Shown here in pieces: positions 14,392 through 17,199 of a DNA stretch of 64,000 bases. The stretch covers positions 20,398,001 to 20,462,000 of the forward strand of contig OX597827.1 of assembly GCA_951406725.2 (NCBI GenBank), in the 5' to 3' direction. The notes under the pieces are model-generated. The model did no database searches and had not been told where the DNA came from. It saw only the letters and a list, made by a program, of their open reading frames with translations. Origin of the DNA: Octopus vulgaris (lineage: Eukaryota). Position 1 is the first letter of the stretch. Every line of letters starts with the position of its first letter. The position numbers were made by a program, and so were the translations under genes.

Positions 14392-15604
14392 TGCCACATG
14401 ACATGCGCCGCAAAGTGTTTCCCCGTCTTTCAAAATCTCGTAATGAACGTCTTTCAAGTTCCAAACTACAGGACCATGTTTCCAAAGAAACGTCCACACA
14501 TCTTTTTTTTGTTTTATCCTTGTTTGATTTGTGTGCTTATTACTAAATTGGTTCCAGCTCGGCAAACCTTAGCACACACAAGCAAATGTTTTCGTTTGCT
14601 GTTTTCCATATACAGGAGCACAAGTTCCAGCTGAGCTGAGCAAGGCATTACCTGTCACTGAAGAGTCGAAATAACACCTAAACACAATGTCAGGTGGTCT
14701 TCTGTACTCGGTTCGATATGTGTGTATGTGTGTGTGTGCGTGCGTGCATGTATGTATTACGTGCTTGCGCGCATCTCTCTCTCTCTCTCTCTCTCTCTCT
14801 CTCTCTCTCTTATATATATATATATATATATATATATATATATATATATATATATAAGATTAATCAGCCGAAATTGCGAAGATGATCCGGTTCTTGACTG
14901 AAGATTGAAGGCTTCGAATGTCCCGTACGTGTTTTTTGTGTCGCCTTCTAAATGTTTCACGTTCTTGTCCCAGTTTGTATTTTTTTACTTTTACATATAT
15001 ATATATGTTGTTGGCATCCTTTTGTCTCAGGAGACAATGTAGTTGCGCATCTGTCACTTTTACAGCAGTACTCAAGTGTCCTCTCCAGTTTTGCGCAGGC
15101 CTGGGCTACTTGTAAGAAAATCCTGAGTAGCCCAATCGTCAGGATTCCTCTCACGACCTTGCTGACGTAGTCCAAAGTAGTGTGAGAACATTACGTTTGG
15201 CACCAGCTTGGTTGCAGGAGCTGCCAGAAGAGTGTAGAGTCGAACACTAAACTGCCTACGAGGCTCCACTCGCACTTCTTTGAAGGTTGTCTCGTGGCTG
15301 TCCTGGAAGGGAAGATTGTTACTGCTGTTTAACCCCAGGAAACATCGTTTTCAGCTGGCTATACAGCACAATCTCTGTGTTGCTGGAAACGACTAAACAA
15401 CACTAGCAATCTTCCCTTCCAGGACTGCCACGTTATGTTGGCAAATAGCCTTTACTCTAAAGAACTGTTACTGCAATATCTCTCTCTGGAGAGATTTAGA
15501 AATAATAATGTTTCTATTTATTTAGATCAGTGATTGTGTGTCACTTTGAAATCTATATATTTGCAAACGGTGAGTTCAGCAGCGCCACCTAGCCGAGCAG
15601 CTAT

Positions 15605-15647
15605 TCTGTGCTGAGAAAGGGCAATGACCCAGAAACCGGTCTACAGA
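15605..15647 (+). ncRNA. Putative minimal type I hammerhead ribozyme motif (variant core)
   Basis: TCTGTG-CTGAGAA-AGGGcaatgaCCCA-GAAA-CCG-GTC-TACAGA: 6-bp stem I, palindromic stem III ACCGGT, GTC triplet. The core deviates from CTGANGA. Confidence 0.55.
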
Positions 15648-16331
15648 TGTTGTTTTATTTTGTTCGATAATATAAGGACACAGAGATTGTGCTGTATAGG
15701 CAGCTGGAAACGATGTTTCCTGGGGCTAAACAACAGTAACAATCGTCCTTTCCAGGACAGCCACGTTATGTTGGCAAATACACTTTACTTTATATGTATA
15801 TATATATATATATATATATATATATATATATATATATATATATATATATATATATATATATGTATATATATATATATATATATATATATATGTATATATA
15901 TATATATATATATATATATGTATATATATGTATATATATACATATATATATATATATATATATATATATATATATATATATATATATATATATATATATA
16001 TATATATATATATATATATATATATATATATATATATATATATATATATATATATATATATATATATATATATATATATATATATATATATATATATATA
16101 TATATATATATATATATATATATATATATATATATATATATATATATATATATATATATATATATATATATATATATATATACATATAAAGTAAAGTGTA
16201 TTTGCCAACATAACGTGGCTGTCCTGGAAATGACGATTGTTACTGTTGTTTAGCCCCAGGAAACATCGTTTCCAGCTGTCTATACAGCACAATCTCTGTG
16301 TCCTTATATTATCGAACAAAATAAAACAACA

Positions 16332-16374
16332 TCTGTAGACCGGTTTCAGGGTCATTGCCCTTTCTCAGCACAGA
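16332..16374 (-). ncRNA. Putative minimal type I hammerhead ribozyme motif (mirror copy)
   Basis: Minus strand TCTGTG-CTGAGAA-AGGGcaatgaCCCT-GAAA-CCG-GTC-TACAGA with a perfect 4-bp stem II. Confidence 0.55.
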
Positions 16375-17199
16375 ATAGCTGCTCGGCTAGGTGGCGCTGC
16401 TGAACTCACCGTTTGCAAATATATAGTTTTCAAAGTGACACACAATCACTGATCTAAATAAATAGAAACATTATTATTTCTAAATCTCTCCAGAGAGAGA
16501 TATTGCAGTAACAGTTCTTTAGAGTAAAGGCTATTTGCCAACATAACGTGGCAGTCCTGGAAGGGAAGATTGCTAGTGTTGTTTAGTCGTTTCCAGCAAC
16601 ACAGAGATTGTGCTGTATAGCCAGCTGAAACGATGTTTCCTGGGGTTAAACAGCAGTAACAATCTTCCCTTCCAGGACAGCCACGAGACAACCTTCAAAG
16701 AAGTGCGGAGTGGAGCCTCGTAGGCAGTTTAGTGTTCGACTCTACACTCTTCTGGCAGCTCCTGCAACCAAGCTGGTGCCAAACGTAATGTTCTCACACT
16801 ACTTTGGACTACGTCAGCAAGGTCGTGAGAGGAATCCTGACGATTGGGCTACTCAGGATTTTCTTACAAGTAGCCCAGGCCTGCGCAAAACTGGAGAGGA
16901 CACTTGAGTAATGCTGTAAAAGTGACAGATGCGCAACTACATTGTCTCCTGAGACAAAAGGATGCCAACAACACACATATATATATATATATATATATAT
17001 ATATATATATATATATATAGAGAGAGAGAGAGAGAGAGAGAGAGAGAGAGAGAGAGATGCGCGCAAGCACATAATACATACATGCACGCACGTACGCACA
17101 CACATACACACACATATCGAACCGAGTACAGAAGACCACCTGACATTGTGTATATATATATGTATATATATATATATATATATATATATATATATATAT

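Follow-up and report, generated by a model that had tools for sequence, protein, structure and literature searches.

Insertions of Penelope-like elements are described as carrying a partial tandem repeat, an inverted 5'-truncated copy and a tail at one end (Craig et al. 2021, PMC8557442; Arkhipova et al. 2013, PMC3846280), and the commonest of their inverted arrangements is head-to-head (PMC3846280). Metazoan Penelope elements also harbor minimal hammerheads, which have been proposed to require a second copy to form a dimer, for which a U3–A8 core variant is on record, and which include opposite-strand pairs 100 to 700 bp apart (Cervera and de la Pena 2014, PMC4209133). In a Penelope hammerhead, a single G8C or C3G change abolishes cleavage, G8A being absent from the set tested there (PMC11167929). 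As to how inverted copies may arise, fold-back templated inverted duplications at yeast breaks are closed with 0 to 5 bp of microhomology and measure 5 to just over 150 bp, far below 1 kb (Yu et al. 2024, PMC11724301), and AT/TA repeats form hairpins or cruciforms and get cut (PMC12972899). All parts of the block described below are of these known kinds, and the type of rearrangement is known as well; our literature search, which was thin on subscription papers, found no report of a TA-centered, tail-to-tail palindrome with Penelope hammerheads.

We obtained the anatomy of this block (Table 1) from a self-comparison of the window, that is, the whole 64,000-nucleotide stretch of Octopus vulgaris DNA analyzed here. 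The inner arms (15007–15796 versus 16972–16183) align over 791 bp at 99.1% identity, with five substitutions and two one-base indels in 785 columns, and the outer arms (14682–14773 versus 17058–17151) are three substitutions and one 2-bp indel apart. Overall, the arms are thus separated by eight substitutions, three small indels, and one 150-bp insert, which is confined to the left arm and is 88.7% identical over 151 bp to 28490–28640. No substitution falls between 15069 and 15551. The mirror ends at 14682 on the left and at 17151 on the right and disregards the borders of the element that it contains, extending over microsatellites, two of them in full view of the self-comparison, and two unrelated repeats, one represented by a 286-bp stretch of high copy number. 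The preliminary description of a 2.47-kb palindrome with near-identical arms on (TA)n, with a nested hairpin at 15293–15433 and its mirror copy and with a mirror reaching into unrelated flank, is therefore borne out in the assembly.

Table 1. Features of the palindromic block, in window coordinates.
Feature	Position	Strand	Remarks
Outer left arm, end of unclassified sequence and (TG/CG)n	14682..14773	+	No further copy in the window
(TC)18 (TA)23 microsatellite	14774..14856	.	Mirrored at 16977-17057
Piece of another very high-copy repeat, left arm only, TA on both sides	14857..15006	+	Highest summed contig depth
286-bp fragment of an unrelated dispersed repeat (copied flank)	15007..15292	.	Summed contig depth up to ~280,000; no third copy in the window
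Inverted 5'-truncated copy of the element 3' end, minus the last 27 nt (tail)	15293..15380	-	93% to 15678-15765
Partial tandem of the element 3' end, 333 nt upstream of the main one	15393..15459	+	88% to 15726-15792
333-bp noncoding Penelope-type unit (pseudo-LTR or retrozyme-sized monomer)	15460..15792	+	70% over 301 columns to 2299-2576
Degenerate minimal type I hammerhead, left arm	15605..15647	+	C3/A8 core mismatch; helix II closing pair A/A
Central (TA)n	15791..16188	.	398 bp
Right arm, inverted copy of 14682-15790 minus the 150-bp insert	16189..17151	-	(TA)n on both sides
Degenerate minimal type I hammerhead, right arm	16332..16374	-	Same C3/A8 mismatch; 4-bp helix II
Outer (TA)n at the mirror end	17151..17202	.	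G interruption at 17162, polarity as in the left central tract

The TA tracts carry informative interruptions. These are G in the left part of the center (15796–15930), C at 15941 and 16183, and G in the second tract, which borders the right arm externally and gives that arm (TA)n at both ends; the first interruption (15796/16183) is common to both arms. At the far junction, 17151, inspection of both ends reveals 1 to 3 nt of microhomology, a weak indication since TA makes such matches easy. According to the contig tables, the family state is found in the right arm at positions 15271, 15552, and 15631; at position 15748, it is the left arm that agrees with the other copies in the window. A coding role for the block was rejected, as its open reading frames of at least 120 aa merely cross microsatellites.

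The segment at 15293–15792 closely resembles the published structure of Penelope insertions (PMC8557442, PMC3846280), with a partial tandem (pseudo-LTR) that repeats the 3' end at a distance of 333 nt, an inverted 5'-truncated copy at the 5' end, a putative tail at one end, and a 3' end that adjoins a microsatellite, here the TA tract. The small nested inversion has its 3' ends outward and is the usual Penelope inversion. At 27 nt (15766–15792, missing from the inverted copy), this tail is slightly below the published 30 to 40 nt; no RT/GIY-YIG ORF is linked to the hammerhead-bearing family in the window, and the large mirror is tail-to-tail and includes flank. By eye, no target-site duplication is evident at 15292 or in the TA tract. 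In the contigs of four sequencing runs, the family is of high copy number, with depth peaking toward the 3' end of the unit and with joints in other copies that switch strand or step back ~250 to 330 bases (among 15 listed joints of a total of 70). Because no reverse transcriptase or endonuclease ORF is linked to it, the element, a putative Penelope member, appears to work like a nonautonomous derivative. Animal non-LTR retrozymes (PMC7229834; bioRxiv 10.64898/2026.07.22.740005) likewise consist of noncoding units of ~300 bp with a type I hammerhead, and the 333-nt unit lies within the ~150 to 400 nt of a retrozyme monomer; it differs from them in that one motif is present per strand rather than a tandem of at least two units with complete hammerheads, and in that this motif is minimal and degenerate.

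An older copy of the same hammerhead family occupies 1604–2591 as an outward-facing fold-back with the same layout and a TTGATGA core, and is split at 1809–2206 by a 400-bp repeat, further copies of which (89–93%) lie at 6654, 13131, and 47806. Three short frames in a further fold-back at 48.7 to 49.2 kb gave no Pfam match and demonstrate no Penelope ORF. Metagenome matches to a 19-nt motif of the family (24 loci) were discarded as chance, since at most 23 bases align among the 30 longest matches.

Two hammerhead-like motifs, at 15605–15647(+) and 16374–16332(-), are present as first described, and their assignment to the minimal Penelope type within a noncoding repeat is supported by their layout. 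Both arms read helix I TCTGTG, core CTGAGAA, GAAA, CCGG, TC, and TACAGA, with a helix II of AGGG-CAATGA-CCCT in the right arm, where the left arm has CCCA in place of CCCT. Helix I forms six of six pairs including one G-U (4 to 6 bp are expected), GAAA and a UH cleavage triplet are in place in both arms (GAAA CCGG TC), and the palindromic 15.2–16.2 pair and loop 3 are represented by CCGG, which is CTAG in the relatives at 2379 and 1604–1808; the relative at 2379 (TTGATGA ... GAAA CTAG) thus preserves the palindromic loop 3 through a double change. The core departs from CUGANGA with C3–G8 (or U3–A8) in both arms, and the G10.1–C11.1 closing pair of helix II is missing, the base before GAAA being T (right arm) or A (left arm), which leaves four and three helix II pairs, respectively. 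Compared with metazoan Penelope minimal hammerheads (PMC4209133), the motifs share the type I layout, a 6-bp helix I, a tiny helix III with a palindromic loop, and dispersed noncoding copies, and are set apart by the C3/A8 core, the missing G10.1–C11.1 pair, and the lack of a linked RT ORF; the opposite-strand pair would also stem from a later duplication, unlike the pairs reported there.

A strict descriptor (core, helix I with at least five of six pairs, helix II, and palindromic loop 3), which was composed post hoc with the motif already known and permits A at position 8, finds three matches in the window, namely the two arms and the relative at 2379, and none in 100 dinucleotide shuffles of the 58,348 nonmicrosatellite bases. 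The hammerhead-like motif thus exceeds chance. A looser motif scan returned 18 rows, mostly in unrelated places. Rfam gave no match in the window at the gathering score and, at E ≤ 10 over 14600–17300, 40 matches that are mostly microsatellite-driven miRNA models and include no hammerhead; the folding energies are ordinary (z of -0.62 for the left motif, -1.55 for the right, and -0.42 for the 2379 copy) and give no support. At position 15615, T makes up about one-third to one-half of the contig depth in four runs and is also the state of the 2379 copy, which makes this a further position at which the arms are derived.

Both ribozyme copies are probably dead, judging from the C3/A8 mismatch that they share, their location on opposite strands, and their mutual pairing in a read-through RNA. 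The prediction that such an RNA would form long dsRNA is supported, with 42 of the 43 bases of one motif predicted to pair with its mirror counterpart. The idea of two convergent ribozymes working as a pair was rejected because the mismatch is in both copies and the motif would be buried in duplex; the mirror appears to have copied an element that had already decayed, so that the two convergent motifs would be a by-product of duplication. A second hammerhead-like core (CTGAAGA GTC GAAA, ~14658) lies at 14650–14696 with a possible helix across the left palindrome junction; its folding z is 0.02 and it has no other copy in the window, so it gives no evidence that left flank and arm are continuous.

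The relative ages of insertion and mirror bear directly on who built the palindrome. The internal pieces of the element are 88 to 93% alike, whereas the large arms are 99.1% identical, which, if the internal pieces were identical at insertion as this dating assumes, argues that the large mirror is a separate event and would be much younger than the insertion. The proposal of the preliminary description that a retroelement generated the large inversion is not supported by this age gap, by the tail-to-tail orientation, or by the copying of a decayed element. Given also the (TA)n on both sides of the right arm, the retroelement probably did not build the mirror.

The reading that we prefer, with a probability of about one-half, is that fold-back repair of a break in a TA tract duplicated, in inverted orientation, an old Penelope-type insertion together with neighboring repeat debris. 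A 333-bp hammerhead repeat, accompanied by a partial tandem and a truncated copy in inverted orientation, would first have inserted and then decayed; the anatomy of this step is directly visible, and we infer its mechanism along with the two later steps. The long TA tract at the 3' end of the element would then have broken, and its self-complementary end would have primed on itself and copied ~1 kb back to 14682, the new strand joining the other TA end at 17151 through the 1 to 3 nt of microhomology. Finally, the arms would have drifted; the 150-bp piece would be either a gain of the left arm or a stretch between two TA runs that was passed over in the synthesis of the right arm. The ribozyme copies would be passengers and are predicted to be inactive.

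Several features agree with fold-back duplications as described for yeast (PMC11724301): the inverted copy adjoins its source with a self-complementary fold, and the far junction, although weak evidence for the reason given above, falls within the 0 to 5 bp reported. The locus differs in the ~1-kb length of the copy compared with 5 to 150 bp, in being an animal assembly rather than an induced yeast break, and in its fold point, which is a long microsatellite unlike those cases and recalls the cruciform fragility of AT/TA repeats (PMC12972899). The order of the interruptions (G, C, G) suggests that one TA tract was split by the inverted copy, and would fit equally well with an inversion allele, as taken up below.

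It is possible, although we hold it to be rather less than an even chance, that the arms are instead two alleles of one locus fused by the assembler. Such a fusion could arise if one haplotype were inverted from 14682 to the (TA)n and the alleles were then joined via self-complementary TA, or if the path came from a fold-back chimeric read and haplotypes were then mixed in the consensus. The joining of a standard allele and an inversion allele through TA would yield exactly this sequence, including the polarity of its interruptions. Both indels of the inner arms lie within homopolymers and four of the five inner substitutions are transversions, which also favors fusion. A near-perfect palindrome on a 400-bp TA center is expected to be unstable, which fits badly with eight substitutions, and presence or absence of a 150-bp piece is a typical allelic polymorphism, which we count for allele fusion. 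A 100-N gap (20267–20366) lies 3.1 kb from the block between ~1.1-kb direct duplicates (19163–20266 and 20367–21471; 19163–21471 overall), which are probably overlapping contig ends from two haplotypes; two haplotypes were thus seemingly kept nearby, and the duplicates have diverged to the same order as the arms, with two substitutions in 633 columns (and two indels) as against five in 785.

We further considered 24 sequencing runs, all as contigs, the best of which contains 0.52 of the sampled words. Four of these (X1, X2, X4, and X5) were compared over 14860–15790 only, with the insert junction in a skipped repeat stretch, and none of their listed contigs spans this 931-bp test stretch. Contig records 12 (X2) and 27 (X5) cross the locus-specific junction 15292/15293, and records 3 (X1) and 13 (X2) cross the nested fold; the insertion locus is therefore present in further samples. 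Relative to the median of single-contig rows (23, 16, 25, and 25 hand-read rows for X1, X2, X5, and X4, respectively, among the best-supported rows listed), the depth of the locus-like contigs is 1.04 in X1, where 1.75 is expected if both arms are homozygous, 1.61 and 1.16 in X2, 0.66 in X5, and 0.77 in X4, whose contig bears a different organism label, has eight differences in 198, and may be a paralogue. The depth is thus not doubled in three of the four runs and is single-copy-like in X1, X5, and X4, as fusion would have it. The palindrome is probably not fixed, and a private or heterozygous one is compatible with this depth.

Other observations weigh against fusion. Where the arms are free of substitutions (15069–15551), contigs of X2 and X5 differ from the window by 2 of 102, 6 of 203, and 2 of 147 letters (records 12, 13, and 27); the two arms therefore resemble one another more than the X2 and X5 alleles resemble the window. 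Over 141 letters, record 3 of X1 shows a single gap, of unlisted position, and no substitution; we read this gap as the state of the right arm at 15348, and X1 is possibly the sample that was assembled. The inversion version also requires an inversion allele together with a mis-join, each of them rare. Long-read data are known to contain fold-back reads as an artifact (PMC12870357), and the block resembles such reads as a near-perfect palindrome without a unique spacer; a plain fold-back read would give arms from one molecule and no new flank, whereas here the arms differ and the right arm returns to new flank through the junction at 17151. A plain single-read fold-back was rejected in view of the eight substitutions, three indels, and 150-bp insert between the arms, although later mixing of haplotypes in the consensus may still lie behind these differences.

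A third explanation, which we regard as improbable, has a Penelope reverse transcriptase acting in trans on a sense read-through RNA that contained flank, element, and some UA repeat. Primed by itself or from a nick in the tract, the (UA)n-ended RNA would have been copied and its cDNA would have re-entered in inverted orientation in the adjacent (TA)n, so that the element plus ~0.6 kb of upstream host DNA would have been written back beside the donor. The mirror does begin at the 3' end of the element, and self-priming on a sense template is stated to give tail-to-tail inverted repeats, with host DNA capture by Penelope elements also on record (PMC3846280). Moreover, (TA)n is a preferred target of some Penelope clades (PMC8557442), and a purified Penelope-like protein favors AT-rich DNA and extends both strands (PMC11167929). 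These points are offset by the age and decay of the copied element, by the interruption common to 15796 and 16183, which places the start of copying inside the tract rather than at a fixed site of the element, by the transduction needed for ~0.5 to 0.6 kb of nonelement upstream flank, and by the prevalence of head-to-head arrangements among Penelope elements (PMC3846280). No other TA-centered mirror was found among the 57 TA tracts listed by a crude ungapped flank test, which missed the studied block too because interruptions split its tract; the self-comparison likewise reveals no other such pair.

That the ribozyme element made the whole 2.47-kb mirror at insertion, with functional convergent motifs, is very unlikely, for while the Penelope-type anatomy is real and opposite-strand minimal hammerheads 100 to 700 bp apart are known (PMC4209133), the internal pieces are ~10 times more diverged than the arms, both copies have the C3/A8 mismatch where single C3 or G8 changes abolish cleavage (PMC11167929), minimal motifs are proposed to need a second copy as a dimer (PMC4209133), and read-through RNA would bury the motif in duplex.

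What the locus means depends on which of these holds. Fold-back repair in (TA)n, the likeliest, would matter little, as decayed Penelope hammerheads are abundant in animals and TA fold-back is known; if real, the block would nevertheless illustrate in nature a fold-back of ~1 kb in which the fold is a long TA tract, and it could give rise to long dsRNA. An artifact would instead be a warning that, in assemblies of TA-rich genomes, alleles can be fused across long TA tracts and appear as false palindromes. Of the readings, copying by reverse transcriptase is the one that would bear on an open question, that of Penelope priming and the formation of inverted structures; if true, it would mean that a retroelement can generate palindromes that capture flank, and with them long dsRNA, in a TA-rich genome.

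The surroundings of the block are rich in microsatellites (134 tandem-repeat rows in the window) and in other inverted structures. An older inverted pair of another repeat, with outward-facing ends and repeat parts 67% alike, lies at 17163–17628 and 19426–19962; its mirror runs 123 bp further (88%) into microsatellite-like sequence, which is either a shared tail or an older inverted duplication beside the one studied here. Further inverted repeats of different families are found at 13901–14146, 26374–26766, 28434–28573, 42387–42848, 42974–43151, 48602–49376, and 61336–62186, and several of these seven end in (TA)n; fold-back insertions seem to be common in the host genome. Within 18864–19100, a short frame that we take to resemble the C-terminal end of a CR1/L2-type reverse transcriptase ORF gave no relevant Pfam match. 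Another inverted pair, of 166 bp (35465–35630 and 36168–36333, 91%), is ~540 bp apart, has an inward CTGAAGA...GAAA in each member, is kin to the 400-bp repeat at 13176–13321, and may represent MITE-like ends. Finally, a 319-aa open frame at 8443–9402 encodes a C2H2 zinc-finger array (Pfam zf-H2C2_2, E 6e-62).
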